Below are positions 14,337 through 50,929 of a stretch of 64,000 bases of DNA, piece by piece; within the stretch, counting starts at the first letter, position 1; every line of letters begins with the position of its first letter. The stretch is from Octopus sinensis. Its lineage: Eukaryota. The translations under genes and the position numbers were made by a program. Location of the stretch: assembly GCF_006345805.1 (NCBI RefSeq), contig NC_042999.1, positions 79,112,001 to 79,176,000 of the forward strand. The letters are read 5' to 3'. The notes below the pieces were generated by a model. The model saw only the letters and a list, made by a program, of their open reading frames with translations, had not been told where the DNA came from and made no database searches.

Positions 14337-16813
14337 ATAAAATGTAAAATATTATAGAACAACTTTGTAAGCCTATCATATTGTTGTTGTCTTGTTACAT
14401 TGTTGCTGTTTAGATCCAAGTTAGAACCGATTTATGATCACAATTTCTTTCACCTTTGACTATCCCATCTTTTATTTTTCCTGATATAGTGTCTCTAGTA
14501 TCGCACTATCCAATGTGACCGTCTTTTGTTTGCAATAGTATAGAATGGTTTCGAGGAAATTTAGCTGGAATTCCTTGTAGCTTGAGCAACAACTCTTATG
14601 CATTTTTGATACAACAGTGCGTGACTGAATCGTTAGAGTTGTAGGCAAAATATTTTGTGATGTTTGAGTTACTTCACTGTAAGTTCTAGGTTCAAATCCT
14701 GCCCAGGCAGCGAATTGGCAGAGTTAGAGTATTTGAACAGAATACATCTTGGTATTTAATCTTACTGTCTCTGCTCTGAGTTCAAATTCCACCGAGGTCT
14801 ACATTGCCTTTCAACCTTTCGGGGTTGATAAATTAAGTACCAGATGCATACTGAGATCGACTGGCTCTTCCCCCAACATTTCGAGCCTTGTGCTTAGAGT
14901 AACAAAAAAAAAAAAAGACAATCTTCTTATATAAAACCATATATTTAAAACCACTCACTGTTTTTAAAATAAAAGAATAATCGATGAGAAAAAAATCCAT
15001 GGAAACAGTTTAAAGTAGTGGTTGGATGAATTGTTTGAGAGTCAGGCAGAGTACTGAGTTGTAATAGCGTACGTAGTTGATAAAACTAGCAGGATTCGAT
15101 TTACTAGAGACGAAATTATCAAAACTATTCTTAATGGCAGTGTCATAGCAAAACTACAAACTAATGACTACAAAGGAAAATAAATTAAATTAAATGTCTA
15201 AAATTTAATGAAATTTAATAAGTTTGACGGTCGAAGTTATGATGGTAGTAACTTTGTGAAAGAGAAAATGTATGGTGTTTATCATATATCCCGGCTTATC
15301 CGAGATAACACCACACCTGTAGCACATCACGCCCAGCTATTCTAAAGCAAATCATAAAATATATCGTAAGATTATTGGATGGCAGAATCAGTAGAGCAAC
15401 CGAGAAAATGTCATATGCTCTTTGGACCCGACATATGTGAGCTTAAATATTTCCTGGGTCGATTAAATCTGACGACGTACATCATTCCGAGGTCGATAGA
15501 AATAACACATATTAAGTAGTCAAATCTTGGGTTGATAAAATCAAATACCCTCTTTGAAGGCGATGCTCCAGTATGGTCGTAGCCTAATGTCTAATGTAAC
15601 AGAATGAAAAGAATAACCGAGTCAATAACATTCTGTACTTTACTTCATTTCACTTCATTCAAAACAAGTCTTAACATCGAAAAAGACAAAATAGGCGTCA
15701 CCAACAAAACCTCACCCTTACCCTCAAATACCCACTTTCTTTTCTCCCGTTGTCCTACTAATTTAAAAGCAAATAATAAAATACAATAACGTAGTAAAGT
15801 ATAAGATAATAACAGAAATGGTAGGCATCTTGTCTATGTAGGGAAAGCATTATTATTTCAAAGTGTAGACATTGTAGAGATAATTACAGTATAAATATTG
15901 GTGTTGCATTTCACATAGAGAATCTTTTATTACCCCAGGAGCTAAATTTCCAGTGACTAATCTCAATTATTATAAATAGTTAAGCTACTTGTCTTCAAGC
16001 AGCAGCATCAACTTACAAAAATAAAAATGGTCACTTCGAAATGTGTAATTGGTTTGAAAGCGAATTGGTTGAGTGGTGGTGGAGGTGATAGCGATGGTGA
16101 TGGTGATATGATGGTGATGGTGGTAGTTATGATGGTCGTGGTGTTGATAGCGGTGGTTATGATGGCTATGGTGATAGTTGTTGTTGTTGTGACGCTGGGG
16201 AAGGGGCTAGGGCGTAGATGTGGTGGTGGTGGAGGGGTGGGGGAGTAGACGGCAATCAGGAATTCCCATCAGCCAATCAAATAAAATAGAAAAAGAAAGA
16301 TAAACACGAACAAAAAGGATTGGGAAAAATGAAGGCGAAGGAGAAAGAAAGGTAGGATACGGAAGCCAAAGAAAACACGAAAGAGGAAAAAAGAAAGGAA
16401 CGAGGAAAGAAGGGAAAATTACAGAAAGAAAGAAGACACAGAATATTCTGAAATTCAAGAAATTTAAGTGTTTTCCAATAGTTTCATGACCTGCAAATAA
16501 TAATGTTGAAGTGATTTCGGGTAAGAATGGTAAGTACATGACGTTTAAATTTACCATTACTTCGGTTGCTTACTGAACTCTTTCGTCTTATTATATAAAC
16601 AGCAAGAAGGTTGCTCTTCTTTCCTCATGGGATGGGGGGGGGTCTACTTACGTATGCATATATGTATGTATGTATGTATGCATGTATGTATGAATGTATG
16701 TACGTATGTATGTAGGTACGTCTCTCTCTCCCTATATATATATATATATATATAATATACATACATATATATATATACATATACACATATATATAGTGCA
16801 TGTGCGTAATGAT

Positions 16814-16846
<33 letters not shown>

Positions 16847-16989
16847 GCATTATATGCATGTATATATATATATATTGTGTGTGTATACATGTATAATATA
16901 TATGTATATGTACATATATATATATATATTATATATATATATATATTGTATATAATATATTATATATATTATATATATATATATATATC

Positions 16990-17212
16990 CAAAGCGATCA
17001 GAGGTACTTGCCGAGCCATAGACACATAAGGCCAGTTTCCGGGGGTCTTTGACGTATATATTCCCCTTCCGTTGACTGCTGAATGGACTGGAGTAACGCG
17101 AAATGAAGTGCCTTGCTCAAGAACTCAATGCATTGCTCATTTCAGGAATCGAAATCACAATCGTATGATCATGAATGCAACACCCTAACCAATTAGCCAC
17201 TCGTCTCCTCCT
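16990..17212 (-). mobile_element. SINE family C head/core with a third tail (duplicated at ~19693-19920)
   Basis: Head ggaggagacgagtggctaattggttagggtgttgcattcatgatcatacg; core cttgagcaaggcacttcatttc. Confidence 0.75.
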
Positions 17213-17247
17213 ATATATATATATATATAGATACATAAATATATATG

Positions 17248-17287
<40 letters not shown>

Positions 17288-17292
17288 ATATA

Positions 17293-17346
<54 letters not shown>

Positions 17347-17367
17347 CTATATATATATATATATATA

Positions 17368-17467
17368 NNNNNNNNNNNNNNNNNNNNNNNNNNNNNNNNN
17401 NNNNNNNNNNNNNNNNNNNNNNNNNNNNNNNNNNNNNNNNNNNNNNNNNNNNNNNNNNNNNNNNNNN
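17368..17467. other. Assembly gap (100 N)
   Basis: Run of exactly 100 n. Confidence 0.99.
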
Positions 17468-19632
17468 CTTACTGTCTCTGCTCTGAGTTCAAATTCCACC
17501 GAGGTCTACATGCCTTTCAACCTTTCGGGGTTGATAAATTAAGTACCAGATGCATACTGAGATCGACTGGCTCTTCCCCCAACATTTCGAGCCTTGTGCT
17601 TAGAGTAACAAAAAAAAAAAAAAGACAATCTTCTTATATAAAACCATATATTTAAAACCACTCACTGTTTTTAAAATAAAAGAATAATCGATGAGAAAAA
17701 AATCCATGGAAACAGTTTAAAGTAGTGGTTGGATGAATTGTTTGAGAGTCAGGCAGAGTACTGAGTTGTAATAGCGTACGTAGTTGATAAAACTAGCAGG
17801 ATTCGATTTACTAGAGACGAAATTATCAAAACTATTCTTAATGGCAGTGTCATAGCAAAACTACAAACTAATGACTACAAAGGAAAATAAATTAAATTAA
17901 ATGTCTAAAATTTAATGAAATTTAATAAGTTTGACGGTCGAAGTTATGATGGTAGTAACTTTGTGAAAGAGAAAATGTATGGTGTTTATCATATATCCCG
18001 GCTTATCCGAGATAACACCACACCTGTAGCACATCACGCCCAGCTATTCTAAAGCAAATCATAAAATATATCGTAAGATTATTGGATGGCAGAATCAGTA
18101 GAGCAACCGAGAAAATGTCATATGCTCTTTGGACCCGACATATGTGAGCTTAAATATTTCCTGGGTCGATTAAATCTGACGACGTACATCATTCCGAGGT
18201 CGATAGAAATAACACATATTAAGTAGTCAAATCTTGGGTTGATAAAATCAAATACCCTCTTTGAAGGCGATGCTCCAGTATGGTCGTAGCCTAATGTCTA
18301 ATGTAACAGAATGAAAAGAATAACCGAGTCAATAACATTCTGTACTTTACTTCATTTCACTTCATTCAAAACAAGTCTTAACATCGAAAAAGACAAAATA
18401 GGCGTCACCAACAAAACCTCACCCTTACCCTCAAATACCCACTTTCTTTTCTCCCGTTGTCCTACTAATTTAAAAGCAAATAATAAAATACAATAACGTA
18501 GTAAAGTATAAGATAATAACAGAAATGGTAGGCATCTTGTCTATGTAGGGAAAGCATTATTATTTCAAAGTGTAGACATTGTAGAGATAATTACAGTATA
18601 AATATTGGTGTTGCATTTCACATAGAGAATCTTTTATTACCCCAGGAGCTAAATTTCCAGTGACTAATCTCAATTATTATAAATAGTTAAGCTACTTGTC
18701 TTCAAGCAGCAGCATCAACTTACAAAAATAAAAATGGTCACTTCGAAATGTGTAATTGGTTTGAAAGCGAATTGGTTGAGTGGTGGTGGAGGTGATAGCG
18801 ATGGTGATGGTGATGATGATGGTGATGGTGGTAGTTATGATGGTCGTGGTGTTGATAGCGGTGGTTATGATGGCTATGGTGATAGTTGTTGTTGTTGTGA
18901 CGCTGGGGAAGGGGCTAGGGCGTAGATGTGGTGGTGGTGGAGGGGTGGGGGAGTAGACGGCAATCAGGAATTCCCATCAGCCAATCAAATAAAATAGAAA
19001 AAGAAAGATAAACACGAACAAAAAGGATTGGGAAAAATGAAGGCGAAGGAGAAAGAAAGGTAGGAAAGACGGAAGCCAAAGAAAACACGAAAGAAGGAAA
19101 AAAGAAAGGAACGAAGGAAAGAAGGGAAAAATTACAGAAAGAAAGAAGACACAGAATATTCTGAAATTCAAGAAATTTAAGTGTTTTCCAATAGTTTCAT
19201 GACCTGCAAATAATAATGTTGAAGTGATTTCGGGTAAGAATGGTAAGTACATGACGTTTAAATTTACCATTACTTCGGTTGCTTACTGAACTCTTTCGTC
19301 TTATTATATAAACAGCAAGAAGGTTGCTCTTCTTTCCTCATGGGATGGGGGGGGGTCTACTTACGTATGCATATATGTATGTATGTATGTATGCTGATGT
19401 ATGAAGGTATGTACGTATGTATGTAGGTACGTCCTCTCTCTCCTATATATATATATATAATATATAACATACATAGATATATATACATATACACATATAT
19501 ATATGTGCATGTGGTATGATCGTGTGTGTATATATCTATATATATATATATATGCATTATATGCATATTATATATATATATGTGTGTGGTGTATACATGT
19601 ATATATATATGTATATGTACATATATATATAG

Positions 19633-19694
<62 letters not shown>

Positions 19695-20107
19695 CAAAAG
19701 CGATCAGAGGTACTTGCGAGCCATAGACACATAAGGCCCAGTTTCCGGGGGTCTTTGACGTATATATTCCCCTTCCGTTGACTGCTGAATGGACTGGAGT
19801 AACGCGAAATGAAGTGCCTTGCTCAAGAACTCTCAAGCATTGCTCATTTCAGGAATCGAAATCACAATCGTATGATCATGAATGCAAACACCCTAACCAA
19901 TTAGCCACTCGTCTCCTCCTATATATAGATATCTATAGATACATAAATATATATGTATTACACAACACAACACACACACACCACACACATGATAATAAAT
20001 AATATATATATATAATATTATATATTATAAATACATATATATATATATATGATATATATATATATAATATATATTGTTATATTTCGGATTGGTCATATTG
20101 CCAGTTT

Positions 20108-22010: not shown

Positions 22011-22039
22011 ATATATATATATATATATATATATAGATA

Positions 22040-22628
22040 TGTATGTATGTATATATATATGCATAGGTGGACACAGGACGTCACGAAACGTGTACAACAA
22101 AATAATACGAAGTACGAGAATATGGAATATGAACTATTTTTTCGAACAACGAAAGACACAAATGGAAAACAAGACGAACAATATAAAGAACACCCTTCAT
22201 CAGTTGTAGTCTGTTTTTTTTTGCTCTCGTATTTCGATCATTTAACAACAATATATGCTTTCAATAAAACAGTTGCTCTCGTTAAGCAAATTAAATAAAA
22301 TTTGGGATTTTGTGGAGGGTCAAACAGAACAGTGAAAACAAACAAGGGAGGGCTGCTAAGCTTCAAGATTTCAGGATCCAAATTTCAGTGTTTAGTTTGC
22401 AATGAAGAGAATTTGGGTGTTGTACAGACTGAGGTTGTCCGACTGGTCAATATCCTGCTTGCTCCAGATCGATGGTAAGCCAGTATCCAGTTTGCTACAG
22501 ATCGGTGGTAAGCGCGTATATAAATAATATTATACTTATGACAGTCTAATAAAATCCTATCGTTTATCATTACACACTGGTATGTTGGATATACGTAATA
22601 AGTCCCCATACAAAGTGCACGTTACAAA

Positions 22629-28576: not shown

Positions 28577-28810
28577 AAACATATTTAGAAATGGATGCGT
28601 GCGGTTCTTGTATTGTATGTCCTATTTTTTTTTGTTGTTTAAGAAAAAAGTCCATTTCCGTGGTTTTGTGTTTATGTTTTCGTTTCTGATTGTGTTCGAC
28701 GTTTTTTTGGTGTCCTGTACCCATATATGCATGTATATATTCATGTAGATGTAGGTACGTACATATATGTATGTATATATGCATATGCTTTATTTATTAA
28801 TTTGTTATTA
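28570..28810 (+). mobile_element. 5'-truncated copy of the same family lacking the HHR
   Basis: Tail aligns by eye to 41235-41470. Confidence 0.55.
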
Positions 28811-29879
28811 TATATATACATATATATATATATATACACACGTAGACACATATGCACAGACACAACATACACACACACACGTACACACGCACATAGACTC
28901 ACACGCGCACACACATATTCTCACACACACACATACACACACACGCACATGCAAATGAACCCACACATAACTCCCATACACATACACTCATACATACACG
29001 CACACAATTATACATCCATGGATACATACACACACGCACGCACACATACGTACACACATACACGCACACACAGATACACGCTGCACACAAAACACACACA
29101 CACACACACAACATATACATAGACGCACACACAAATACTTCAAACTATCAGTTAAACACCTTTCTAGTGACTATCCTCCTACGCACATGTGTAGGGAGAC
29201 ACAACAGACAGCCACTCCTACCAAAATTCTTACTATAAATTCTTCCTACGACATAAAGCGACACAAAGTCCAACCACACAGATACATAAAGAGTCACAAC
29301 CACACACACACACATACACACATACACGCGCGTACTATCATTAACACACACACACACGCAGTCCTGCGCGCACGCACATACCCACACATACACACACATA
29401 CGGTCTTGTCTTGCACTCTGCGGTCTTAGAAATAATTTTTTTCCTCACCCTTTCCGGTCATTTCAATATGTGACCGCGTGTGTATTGCTGGCGATTGTCT
29501 TTCTCCGTCTTCCGTCTTCCGTCTTTGTACTTTTTCTATATTTCTGATGAAGAGCTTTAATAAAAAATATTACTTTTAATAAACTAATATTTTCAATGAA
29601 CTTTTTGTCTAATATTTTGTCAGATATTTCCTTGTAAACTGTTGTCAACATTTTCTTATTATAATCAAAGAATGTATATATGTATTTCAATACTTTTGTG
29701 CCAACCAGTATTTAACACAACAAACCTTATACAAAGCTTTACATTTTACTTTTGACAATCTCTTTCTAAAAAATTGAAACCGGTCAAGTGAATAAACATC
29801 TTTAAAATTGCATTTTCAAACTTGGAACCTTAATACATATATATATATATATATAATATATATATAATATATATATATA

Positions 29880-33112: not shown

Positions 33113-33858
33113 GTCAGAAACGTTAGCACGCCGGGCGAAATGCTTAGCGGTATTTCGTCTGCCGCTACGTTCTGAGTTCAAATTCCGCCGAGGTCAACTT
33201 TGCCCTTCGTCCTTTCGGGGTCGATTAAATAAGTACCAGTTACGCACTGGGTCGATATAATCGACTTAATCGGTTTGTCTGTCCTTGTTTGTCACCTCTG
33301 TGTAGCCCCTTGTGGGCAGTAAAGAAATAGGTATTTCGTCTGCTGCTACGTTCTGAGTTCAAATTCGCCGAGGTCAACTTTGCCCTTCGTCCTTTCGGGG
33401 TCGATTAAATAAGTACCAGTTACGCACTGGGTCGATATAATCGACTTAATCGGTTTGTCTGTCCTTGTTTGTCACCTCTGTGTAGCCCCTTGTGGGCAGT
33501 AAAGAAATAGGTATTTCGTCTGCTGCTACGTTCTGAGTTCAAATTCCGCCGAGGTCGACTTTGCCTTTCATCCTTTCGAGGTCGATTAAATAAGTACCAG
33601 TTACGCACTAGGGTCGATATAATCGACTTAATCCGTTTGTCTGTTCTTGTTTGTCCTCTCTGTGTTTATCCCTTTGTGGGTAGTAAAGAAATAGGTATTT
33701 CGTCTATCATTATGTTCTGAGTTCAAATTCCGCCGAGGTCGACTTTGCCTTTCATCATTTCGGGGTCGATAAATTAAGTACCAGTCTCGTATTGGGGTCG
33801 ATCTGATCGACTGGCCCCTCCCTAAAAATTTCGGGCCTTGTGCCTAGAGTAGAGAGAG
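33113..33858 (+). mobile_element. SINE family B with four internal ~180-bp tandem units
   Basis: Units start at 33149, 33330, 33510 and 33694 (ggtatttcgtct..gagttcaaattcc..gcctttcatcctttcggggtcga). Confidence 0.85.
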
Positions 33859-40066: not shown

Positions 40067-40869
40067 CGTATGTGTGTGTGCGTGCGCGCACGCATGTGTT
40101 TGTGTATGTAAAATGGCCTTAGTTTTTCTTTCTCATTTAGTTCAGGGTTATTTTCTCTGCATTTATTATACATTATTTGTTCATTAGTTTTTAGCACCTT
40201 ATTGACATGCTTACCACTCTTTTAGTTTTGGGAAACAAAAATATTACGAGATTGGCAAATTTACTGCTAAACCTAGTTCTTTACGGTGATTATATATGTG
40301 TATGTATGTATGTATGTATGTATGTATGTATGTATGTATGTATGTATGTATGTATGTATGTATGCATGCATGCATGTATGTACATATATATATATATATG
40401 TGTGTGTGTGTGTTGTGTGTGTGTGTGTGTGTTTGTGTGCAAACAATTGTCTAGTTACCTATTGAATAGACCTTTTCACTTTCAGATGTCGCAGACTGAT
40501 GCCGCTGGATAGTCAAATACATCTTCCATCAGAGGAATTCAGTAACAATGGTTCGGCCAGTACAGGCTGACCCACCACCAGCATGCGACTAGATTCCCCC
40601 TTCTTCTTCTTCTTCTTCTTCTTCTTCTTCTTCTCTTCTTCTTCTTCTTCTTCTTCTTCTTCTTCTTCTTCTTCTTCTTCTTTTTTTTTTCCTTCATCCT
40701 CTTCTGCTCCTTCCTTTTCTCCTTATCATTGACCCCCCCTCCACATAATATCTACACCACATACTTCCCCCGCATCCCCACTTTCAAATTATTCTTTTCT
40801 GTTTCCTTACGAAATTTTCCTTACAACAATCTTTGAAGGGCGCACAGTGTAATAACACACTTTCGATGC

Positions 40870-40987
40870 AAGTCTGATGAAGTGCTTCCCCAATGACTAC
40901 AACTGAAAATATTACGAGGTTTTCCATTTATAATTTAAGCGTCAACTAGCGTTACAAATAGAGATGGCACGGAAACTTTTGTAACTT
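40870..40987 (+). ncRNA. Type I hammerhead candidate with ~80-nt insert in stem II
   Basis: AAGT-CTGATGA-A-GTGC...(81 nt)...GCAC-G-GAAA-C-tttt-G-TA^-ACTT. Confidence 0.5.
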
Positions 40988-41016
40988 ATAATTAAAGATG
41001 TGTAAATAAATTTTCC

Positions 41017-41392
41017 TTGTCTCCTTTTTTTCATTGGGTTCTTTATTTGTACTGTTTTTTTCTTCATTTGTATTGCTTTTACGTCCTGTTCTTGTCACTT
41101 TTTTTACCCCTCTGCAAAAGAATTTTATTTAATTCATTTTGCAGGAAGGATTGCTTCGGTCGTATCGTGTTCTGCCCTTACCTTCGAAACACGCATTGAG
41201 TCGAAACAGGGGCAGCTGAAGAAGGGGAATATTCCTTGTATTGTTTGTCTTGTACTCTGTTTTTTCGTTGTTAAAAAAAGTCCGTTTCCTTGTTTGATTT
41301 TATATTTTCGTTTCTCGTTGTGTTCTACGTTTATTCATGGTGTCCTGTACTCATATATGCATGTATATATACATATAGATGTAGGTATGTAC

Positions 41393-41425
<33 letters not shown>

Positions 41426-41470
41426 TGTATGTATGTATGTATGTATGCATATGTTTTATTTATTAAATTG
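41017..41470 (+). mobile_element. Same repeat family, second subfamily (copy 3)
   Basis: ttttatttaatt..permuted HHR..T-rich..tgtcctgtac.catatatgcatgtatatat..tagatgtagg tail, shared with 46987 and 28570. Confidence 0.65.
41166..41227 (+). ncRNA. Non-circularly permuted hammerhead ribozyme
   Basis: CGTGT-T^-CTGCCCTT-ac-CTTC-GAAA-CACG-(14 nt)-AGGGGCAG-CTGAAGA-A-GGGG; 8-bp stem I, GUU site. Confidence 0.72.
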
Positions 41471-46986: not shown

Positions 46987-46989
<3 letters not shown>

Positions 46990-47345
46990 ATTTTATTTTA
47001 ATTCTCTCGAGAGAAGGCCTAGCATGACCAGACGTGTCCTGTCTTGCCTTCGAAACACGCTATGTCTGCTAGCGACAGCTGATGAAGGGGATTTTTCCTT
47101 GTGCAGCATGTCCTGTACTTCGTTTTTCTGCTGTACACAATTGTTTTTCCCGTTTTCGTTTCGTCTTGTTCCACGTCTCTGTCCTTCTGTTGTAACAAAA
47201 TGGCTTTTCCGTTTTCGTTTCTGTTGATTTTTACGTCTTCTTGTGGTGTTCTGTACGTATATATATTTATATATGCATGTATATATACATGTAGATGTCG
47301 GTACGTACATATATGTTTGTATGTATGCATATATTTTATTTATTA

Positions 47346-47350
<5 letters not shown>
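46987..47350 (+). mobile_element. Same repeat family (copy 4), inside (TA)n
   Basis: Same HHR and 3' tail as copy 3; long (TA)n on both sides. Confidence 0.65.
47033..47090 (+). ncRNA. Non-circularly permuted (pseudoknotted) hammerhead ribozyme, best-preserved copy
   Basis: CGTGT-C^-CTGTC-ttgc-CTTC-GAAA-CACG-(14 nt)-GACAG-CTGATGA-A-GGGG. Stem III CGTGT/ACACG, GUC site, stem I CTGTC/GACAG, stem II CTTC/GGGG; core intact. Confidence 0.75.
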
Positions 47351-49784: not shown

Positions 49785-50225
49785 TGGCTGCGAGCTGGCA
49801 GAAACGTTAGCACGCCGGGCAAAATGTGTAGCAGTATTTCGTTTGTCTTTACGTTCTGAGTTCAAATTCCGCCGCGGTTGACTTTGCCTTTCATCCTTTC
49901 GGGGTCGACAAATTAAGTACCAGATGCGTACTGGGGTCGATCTAATAGACTGTTCCCCTCCCCCAAAATTTCGGGCCTTGTGCCTAGAGTAGAAAAGAAT
50001 ATTTTAAAGAAGGCGGCAAGCTGGCAGAAATGTTAATACGCCGGGCGAAATGCTTATCGGAATTTCGTCCGTCTTTACGTTCTGAGTTCAAATTCCGCCG
50101 CGGTTGACTTTGCCTTTCATCCTTTCGGGGTCAATAAATTAAATACCAGTTGCGTACTGGAGTCGATCTAATCGACTGGCTCCTTCCCCCCAGATTTCGG
50201 GCCTTGTGCTTAGAGTAGAAAAGAT
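49785..50225 (+). mobile_element. Two tandem SINE family B monomers
   Basis: Copies at ~49785-50000 and ~50011-50225. Other diverged copies at ~4173-4590(-), 9120-9305(+), 14700-14905(+), 39568-39705(-), 53112-53320(-), 62450-62820(-). Confidence 0.85.
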
Positions 50226-50929
50226 TATATTAGACATTTCGATTTTATCTTTGAATTCGTTTGATACCCAAGGTTCTTTAAAGTGTAGTAATCGAACACA
50301 CGAACATCGTGACAATCAGAATGGTATAGTTTTAGCCATAAAAATTATTTTGTATAGAAGATAAATATAAAGTAGTAAGCTTTATACTTTCCGCAATAAT
50401 TAATAGTCATTATAATTGAAATTGCATCAACCACAACTGGGCCACGTTAAATCGTTTTATCAGACAAGATTCACTGTGAACTCATAATGAGTGTATCGCA
50501 TATCTATAGGTTATATCTGTCGCAGTAGTAAATTATGGCCACTAACATAGGAGAGACAAATGATGCCGCGCCCAGAATCAGTTGTTCCTTTACAATTTCA
50601 TAGCAATTTACTTAACATTTATGGTTAAATGTATTTTCGATTATTAATTAGAGCTGTTTCAGCTCATCACGTGACCAATTTTAGCTTTTGATGCAAGTCC
50701 AAGCCTGAAATCAGAATATTAAGACAGTTTAGTATATAATCCTGATCTTGACAGTGGGGTAGTCTTAGTTCTAACAGGTAGTGAATTATCAGAGCCAATA
50801 GAATACTGCGCAGCCGGCTCACTATATTATGATATTAATACTAGTGACGACGCCTTGTATTCCTTCGATGTCAATAAACAGTACTTGCCAAGTAGTGGGG
50901 CTGTTTATTCTCTTCCAACATCTGTCTAG

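Follow-up and report, generated by a model that had tools for sequence, protein, structure and literature searches.

A motif of about 120 nt, present in thousands of copies in the genome of Octopus sinensis and with its blocks in the order S-G-C, probably folds into a self-cutting hammerhead ribozyme in which a four-way junction takes the place of stem II and for which a cut is predicted after U41171. Positions given here refer to the window, a stretch of 64,000 nt from contig NC_042999.1 (79,112,001 to 79,176,000, forward strand), in which the motif spans 41107-41227. The observations behind this reading, made on DNA sequence, are the block order, the copy number, covariation in stems I and III, helix P4 and hairpin Y, the complementarity of the strands of helices X and Z, a tandem non-coding monomer, (TA)n flanks, inverted pairs, and a pile-up of 5’ ends near the predicted cut. 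With somewhat less assurance, we propose that the layout is a seventh hammerhead wiring and the missing ribozyme of the Naiad elements from ctenophores or corals to octopus (nematodes having the rare C-S-G type), that a young retrozyme-like family uses it, and that the genome records its cleavage in vivo.

The hammerhead core is present as C3-U4-G5-A6-N7-G8-A9, G12-A13-A14, A15.1-U16.1 and H17; its invariance is partly imposed by the search patterns, although the counts are still far above those of reversed controls. Stems I and III flank the predicted cleavage site and covary. All parts lie on the plus strand. Block S (41166-41177) holds the stem III strand CGUG, U16.1 at 41170, U17 at 41171, 3’ of which the cut is predicted, and the stem I strand CUGCCC. 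A linker of 3 nt (41178-41180) connects stem I to the position of stem II, and block G (41181-41193) follows with CCUUC (strand b’), G12-A13-A14-A15.1 at 41186-41189 and the stem III strand CACG. Block C (41210-41227) is composed of the stem I strand GGGCAG, the core CUGAAGA at 41216-41222 and AGGGG (strand a’). The distance from U16.1 to G12 is 15-17 nt in all 158 parsed rows, the parser having allowed 13-19. The order is thus cleavage site, GAAA, CUGANGA, i.e., S-G-C and not one of the circular orders CGS, GSC or SCG, which confirms the permuted hammerhead core of the original prediction. Rfam gave no match in the window at gathering score.

Type SGC hammerheads, for which Eckert et al. validated cleavage in vitro in 2023 (PMC10085705), are described in the available text of that article as having a typical linker of 3 nt and as found only in metatranscriptomes, the genomes of known organisms yielding none apart from one GCS candidate. 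The same source treats CUGANGA and its adjacent paired bases as one indivisible block in a scheme of six permutations. Additional helices in some hammerhead variants are mentioned in PMC13725137. The S-G-C order with a short S-G linker is present in the octopus motif, but block C is probably not intact, each half pairing better with an upstream strand. Among the literature searched for permuted or SGC hammerheads, retrozymes and Naiads, we found no description of this layout, which in 5’ to 3’ order is a-Y-b-P4-S-G-C-a’. Judged from its sequence, the stretch 41107-41227 is best filed as hammerhead-like, type SGC in order, without an intact block C and in a layout outside the six published permutations. 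Apart from the motif, CUGAUGA also stands alone at 40852-40890, with AGUG behind it and the complementary CACU shortly before it; this occurrence lies outside the repeat, has no GAAA and is probably due to chance.

The original prediction had drawn attention to a compensatory change in stem I between two copies in the window. Re-reading of the sequence gave the letters as claimed, CTGCC (41172-41176) with GGCAG (41211-41215) in one copy and CTGTC (47039-47043) with GACAG (47074-47078) in the other. The change is family-wide. Among 131 unique copies, a set biased towards paired states because parsing required at least 6 of the 8 stem I and stem III pairs, pair 1.4-2.4 is U-A in 67 and C-G in 56, and the other states are few (U-G 3, C-A 2, C-C 2, C-U 1); independent variation of the two positions was not seen in this set. 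These copies are what was left of 135 unique rows after removal of 2 from another family and 2 palindromic junction artefacts. The mutual information of columns 1.4 and 2.4 is 0.77 bit, against 0.05-0.33 for six non-partner columns. Core position 7 (CUGAAGA at 41216-41222, CUGAUGA at 47079-47085) and N17 (U41171, C47038) also differ between the two copies as had been stated, and both vary family-wide where hammerheads allow: N17 is C in 65, U in 59 and A in 7 of the 131 copies, with G excluded by the search patterns, and N7 is U in 70, A in 57, G in 3 and C in 1.

When 97 of the 131 copies are placed on a tree derived solely from the 3’ flank, columns 1.4 and 2.4 change 5 and 6 times, and the C-G and U-A states alternate between subfamilies. 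On well-supported branches there are 3 independent pairs, 1.9 concordant and 0.0 discordant (sign test p 0.5). The double change amounts to about 2-3 independent events and alone is not significant after kinship is considered, because the supported branches offer too few independent contrasts. The argument for stem I accordingly draws on a number of pairs jointly. Two common Watson-Crick states each are found at stem I pairs 1.1, 1.2, 1.4 and 1.5 and at stem III pairs 16.3 and 16.4, and in 57 untruncated copies two-sided changes are found in 5 of the 6 pairs that make up stem I and in 3 of the 5 that make up stem III. The stem I change would then belong to a series of double substitutions that became fixed in the master elements as one subfamily succeeded another.

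Other parts of the original prediction had to be revised. Stem I had been extended to 8 bp; it has 5-6 bp, the sixth pair (1.6) being formed in just 74 of 131 copies, and the longer version is unsupported because a seventh and an eighth pair would consume the 3-nt S-G linker and the P4 strand. The segment at 41194-41209, taken for a linker of unrelated sequence, is homologous across subfamilies, with intermediates, and consists of an internal-loop strand and the 3’ strand of helix P4 (41200-41209), which pairs with an upstream strand. Boundaries at 41166 and 41227 proved too narrow, since the structure begins at 41107.

Approximately 60 nt upstream of the stretch 41166-41227 lie three elements that are mutually flush. 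Strand a (CCCCU, 41107-41111) pairs with 41223-41227 to give helix X, with 92.6% of cells paired, and this helix is part of the minimum free energy fold. Hairpin Y (41112-41144; -11.5 kcal/mol) fits flush between strands a and b and has two-sided change in 4 of 8 pairs. Strand b (GAAGG, 41145-41149) pairs with 41181-41185 as helix Z, with 98.2% of cells paired, and its first G would stand opposite C11.1, in the position of G10.1. The 5’ strand of helix P4 (41151-41161) extends stem III past an internal loop; two-sided change is found in 6 of the 7 counted pairs, with 84% of cells paired over 57 copies, and the helix is partly worn in the 41107 copy, though all strands are present there. In this copy the calculated energies are -7.4 kcal/mol for X, -4.6 for Z and 0.0 for a direct stem II. 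On this modeling, 41181-41185 and 41223-41227 most likely do not pair with each other as stem II, and each half would pair instead with a separate upstream strand. Two earlier registers, one pairing the upstream GAAGG with a downstream UUCCUU and one with a 2-nt insertion before G12, were dropped, the b-b’ and a-a’ pairings fitting all families.

The model of six helices was compared with shuffled controls in 57 untruncated copies, picked by hand out of 81 candidates. It pairs 91.7% of cells against 84.3 in shuffles, has 198 two-sided cells against 77.6, and reaches a structure score of 0.291 against 0.172; for each of these measures, 0 of 500 shuffles reach the observed value. Slid partners pair in 36-48% of cells. 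Two of the five whole-structure measures fail to beat the shuffles, a control that ignores kinship: pairs with two-sided change (18 against 16.4, reached by 126 of 500 shuffles) and pair types (42 against 46.6) show no excess. The folding z-score of -3.30 for 41104-41232 backs helices X, Y and I only, because nested folding programs cannot represent pseudoknots. An automated search, run without a shuffled control, found the complete flush junction in 54 of 147 copies of the window family.

Could the motif instead be an ordinary type SGC hammerhead with a direct stem II, in which the upstream strands act as a sequestering off-switch? Within the 41107 family the direct register has 93.9% of cells paired, and 114 of 147 copies could form a direct stem II of 4 bp if one extra A is allowed. 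The SGC-1 and SGC-3 oligos likewise have an additional base after A9 (in the text of PMC10085705 available to us), and helices X and Z do not covary inside the family, the 57 copies having no two-sided change in either. Yet the direct register, in which pair 10.1-11.1 closes only with the extra A and two G-U pairs (G-C, G-U, G-U, G-C), is also without covariation, a slid register pairs equally well (97.4%), and its net energy is the 0.0 kcal/mol given above. Since X and Z lack covariation within the family, their support comes from other families, where strands a and b and hairpin Y are kept and a direct stem II is missing. We therefore regard the off-switch as unlikely and prefer the four-way junction.

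The same layout occurs in four sequence-unrelated families of this genome, here called C, D, E and Naiad type, whose copies are old. A direct stem II of at least 4 bp was found in none of 53 copies (0/6 C, 0/25 D, 0/2 E, 0/20 Naiad type), against 36 of 53 for helix Z of at least 4 bp (5/6, 15/25, 2/2 and 14/20, in the same order) and 39 of 53 for helix X of at least 3 bp. The complete flush junction was recovered in 11 of the 53 (1/6, 7/25, 0/2 and 3/20), again without a shuffled control. Helix X changes on both sides between families, and families C, D and Naiad type, otherwise different in sequence, retain the G-C pair that adjoins GAAA. In the octopus Naiad type, helix X has just 3 bp. Families C, D and E were seen at loci L066-L069, L161-L190 and L166/L170/L182/L187; in family D, helix X measures 10-12 bp, and one tandem copy (L180) has a very short unit.

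A motif taken from the published octopus Naiad consensus gave 322 genomic matches against 0 for the control. In the available portion of PMC8557442, Naiads are reported to be without a canonical hammerhead, some being flagged HHR_core or HHR_half_core, and the octopus Naiads are described as old remnants. Inspection by eye of the available portion of its supplement revealed that at least 8 of the 54 published Naiad consensus records carry the a-Y-b-P4-S-G-C-a’ layout at their 3’ end, a lower bound because the search covered CUGAUGA and two GAAAC contexts and line breaks hide some motifs. Three of these records are from Acropora and two from Octopus; parts 8, 12 and 19 of the file contribute one each, which its ordering would assign to a ctenophore, to a box jelly or acanthocephalan, and to a crustacean. 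Naiad_Ovul, flagged HHR_half_core, is among the records with the layout, and a ninth record (part 25) has it in worn form. The Acropora ends, again by eye, have 8 bp in X, 6 bp in Z and 9 bp in P4, and in the coral and other Naiad ends with the layout a direct stem II cannot form, which further argues against an off-switch. Five Naiad ends from the nematode part (File S5, parts 13-16) have a clean C-S-G order with a direct stem II, a hammerhead type which, according to the accessible text of PMC10085705, is known from only two metagenomic sequences. Two further ends in parts 25-26 (the hemichordate region) carry another conserved GC-rich 3’ motif, with GAAAC and no nearby CUGANGA in the passages seen; it is possibly another ribozyme or a signal.

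The motif resides in a repeat. In the window, the copy that carries it is a 5’-truncated, non-coding Penelope-type tandem repeat copy on the plus strand (41012-41465, the BLAST ends being approximate) which terminates in (TA)n; against the L075 monomer, 41012-41159 matches at 85% and 41166-41438 at 92%. A second copy (46987-47349, plus strand), of another subfamily and with ribozyme blocks at 47033-47090, is 5’-truncated inside hairpin Y. In it no helix X was found and the fold z-score is -0.18; it is structurally incomplete because the truncation removed strand a, the 5’-most strand. A third copy on the minus strand (22030-22320, recognized by eye) is decayed, block C being recognizable and blocks S and G worn, and a 3’ stub on the plus strand (28604-28813) is truncated downstream of the ribozyme. 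Other features of the window are a segment of about 2.7 kb duplicated head to tail at ~14700-20000 (identical context at 15469 and 18176), which may be an assembly artefact, with an N assembly gap at ~17370-17470 between the two copies, and tandem arrays of a SINE-like repeat at 33149-33812 and 49786-50232, with periods of 180 and 226. The latter repeat presumably resembles a common octopus SINE.

Genome-wide (2.72 Gb), 1,220 places match the family pattern exactly and 0 match its reversed control, and two looser, mutually exclusive patterns have 1,742 against 7 and 1,911 against 4, together more than 3,600 copies. A scan of metagenomes with the family pattern returned 4 matches, none with the upstream layout, which we read as chance. 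In copies of the repeat the 3’ end is fixed at (TA)n and the 5’ end varies; the family is young, its nearest copies being 96-99% alike. The repeat occurs as tandems of 777-879 nt units with a short tail of the next unit (spacings of 777, 829, 852-857, 862 and 879 nt in five loci), and arrays of 2-4 units exist. The longest stop-free frame in the five tandem loci is 105-164 aa, i.e., the repeat is non-coding. Inverted pairs were observed at L028/L029, L061, L073, L077, L129 and L348, the junction often lying inside or beside the ribozyme.

These tandem arrays bear on a further reading, in which the core is assembled between two molecules or tandem units, as in minimal PLE hammerheads, so that the order would be an artefact of strand swapping. 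Arrays of the kind needed do exist, and cleavage of dimers is known for PLE and newt hammerheads. However, stem III has 4-5 bp plus P4 and does not resemble a short palindromic hairpin, loops of ~800 nt would be required for a circular order, and the Naiad consensus ends contain the whole layout once. We consider such assembly very improbable, and the single-molecule four-way junction is the reading kept below.

What mobilizes the repeat was approached through its neighbors. The insertion traits of Naiad PLEs are present, namely (TA)n targeting, 5’ truncation, partial tandems with a tail and an inverted 5’ copy, all of them traits also common to other PLE clades. An autonomous Naiad ORF, with N-terminal GIY-YIG endonuclease and C-terminal reverse transcriptase (RT), was joined to none of the scanned repeat copies, and RT motifs were found upstream of 0 of 20 Naiad-type copies. 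The genome also contains an abundant Penelope-like family with many intact copies (L113:584-6800, G000:C1:207473000-207482000; also L111-L125), in which an upstream ORF of 479 aa without a Pfam match overlaps an ORF of 781 aa encoding RT and, at its C terminus, a GIY-YIG domain (matches to RVT_1 and GIY-YIG), and whose terminal repeats carry a minimal type I hammerhead. We rejected such a C-terminal-endonuclease PLE as a proven mobilizer, as at the loci that contain both it and the repeat (L092, L102, L127, L128, L129) TA runs or other repeats intervene or the arrangement resembles co-insertion, and the full-length L113 element was rejected as proof because it has its own type I hammerhead. 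It is still a candidate helper because its ORFs are intact in this genome. At L102:570 (minus strand), no TA run separates a repeat copy from the 3’ UTR of that PLE, and the direct fusion reflects either insertion or template switch.

The variable 5’ ends of the repeat are not evenly distributed. In a first set, copies were selected through a motif lying 3’ of the ribozyme, which had 1,559 matches (the first 100 places gave 96 unique rows); curation by hand dropped 7 of the 96 (2 outside the list, 4 internal deletions, 1 duplicate) and reassigned 1, leaving 89. Of these, 15 stop 0-9 nt after the predicted cut, or 2.3% per nt, against a background of 0.40% per nt within 50 nt downstream and 0.25 within 70 nt upstream, giving ratios of 5.9 and 9.4 (p 4e-6 and 2e-7). 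A second, overlapping set from the 1,220-match pattern (n=95) has 20 stops against 12, the 20 lying in the same 10 nt (ratio 9.6). Three copies of these sets (L303, L325, L361) have position 1.1 as their first base, preceded by a TA run; when the genome was searched with a strict pattern in which a TA run abuts position 1.1, just 2 copies matched. Most stops occur 4-8 nt after the cut, near the TA/CA-bearing linker and not on it, and TA microhomology in the linker may shape their positions. Neither at strand a, which forms the motif’s front edge 65 nt upstream, nor at the TA-rich loop of hairpin Y do the mapped 5’ ends pile up.

Since many copies begin just at the predicted cut, the ribozyme likely cuts in the animal, and the pile-up is likely a footprint, left in the genomic sequence, of cleavage in vivo. 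Cutting is likely partial or reversed by ligation, because 57 of the 72 copies reaching the region continue across the site. In an anole PLE, according to the available text of PMC11167929, no RNA ends were found at the cut site, cleavage is dispensable in vitro, and the main in vitro substrate is uncut RNA.

The same copies crossing the site would also be expected of a non-catalytic signal or relic, for example a recognition or end-protection element for a PLE protein, with the pile-up produced by RT stalling or by TA microhomology. The peak of stops past the site, at the TA/CA-bearing linker, fits this explanation too, and no hammerhead with a junction opened between A9/10.1-11.1/G12 was found in the literature searched. 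On the other hand, all five families and the Naiad ends retain the catalytic bases, N7 and N17 alone being free to vary (which the search patterns partly impose), and the TA-rich loop of hairpin Y, which lies upstream, shows no pile-up. By the time it reaches the linker, the RT would have unwound every partner strand; stalling would therefore predict stops further 3’. A relic or signal thus appears improbable, and we retain a cutting ribozyme.

Based on these observations, the following mechanism can be envisaged. The chain would enter through strand a, hairpin Y and strand b. Strand b would pair with the CCUUC before GAAA and supply the G opposite C11.1, helix Z being stacked beneath A9-G12 as a substitute for stem II. 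Strand a would pair with the bases after CUGANGA and close the junction, X and Y completing its four arms. P4 would run back from stem III, link helix Z and stem I at their far ends, and replace the contact between loops I and II. Hammerheads cleave by the usual G12/G8 chemistry, and cleavage after U41171 would proceed in this way. Transcription through tandem copies would then give monomers of ~800 nt cut at each ribozyme, and a PLE-type reverse transcriptase and endonuclease acting in trans would copy these monomers into (TA)n from the 3’ end. Copying off a cut 5’ end would leave copies which start at the cut or a few bases after it.

Several known systems share features with this repeat. 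The minimal type I hammerheads of C-terminal-endonuclease PLEs, such as L113 in this genome, likewise place the core in a terminal repeat and are TA-associated, but they have the circular C-G-S order, a direct stem II and a short palindromic stem III. Like the Naiad PLEs, the repeat inserts at (TA)n targets, undergoes 5’ truncation, forms inverted pairs as well as partial tandems with tails, and has the RNA layout seen at the Naiad 3’ end (as far as described in the available text of PMC8557442); in contrast to the octopus Naiad, it encodes no protein and has no clear sequence in common with it outside of the motif. If our interpretation is true, the reported lack of hammerheads in Naiads is resolved and the ribozyme is near-universal in animal Penelope-like elements, and the hammerhead would therefore more likely be functional than parasitic. 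For its role in PLE transposition, the pile-up of 5’ ends offers a genomic read-out, applicable to any assembly, of whether cut RNA served as template.

The non-LTR retrozymes, in the available text of PMC7229834 and 10.64898/2026.07.22.740005, are also AT-rich, non-coding head-to-tail monomers with one hammerhead each, and those of animals are thought to be mobilized by PLEs. They differ in having type I hammerheads and monomers of ~300 bp, as against units of 777-879 nt and a non-circular, probably junction-bearing ribozyme. Type I descriptors would miss such a ribozyme, and standard ribozyme and retrozyme scans miss the junction form.

The closest relative in wiring is type SGC, represented by HRIMA-1 and the SGC variant in the accessible text of PMC10085705. 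Common to both are the S-G-C order, the full core (CUGANGA, GAAA and UH), the 3-nt linker, an extra helix tying the far ends and two or more pseudoknots. Type SGC pairs stem II directly, while the octopus motif would use two separate upstream strands around a hairpin; the hammerhead core, if this is true, tolerates an opening between A9 and G12, against the assumption of the six-permutation scheme. Moreover, type SGC is known there from metatranscriptomes and the octopus motif from thousands of copies in an animal genome, which, if the proposal is correct, would take non-circularly permuted ribozymes beyond environmental RNA and place them, in many copies, in animal genomes.
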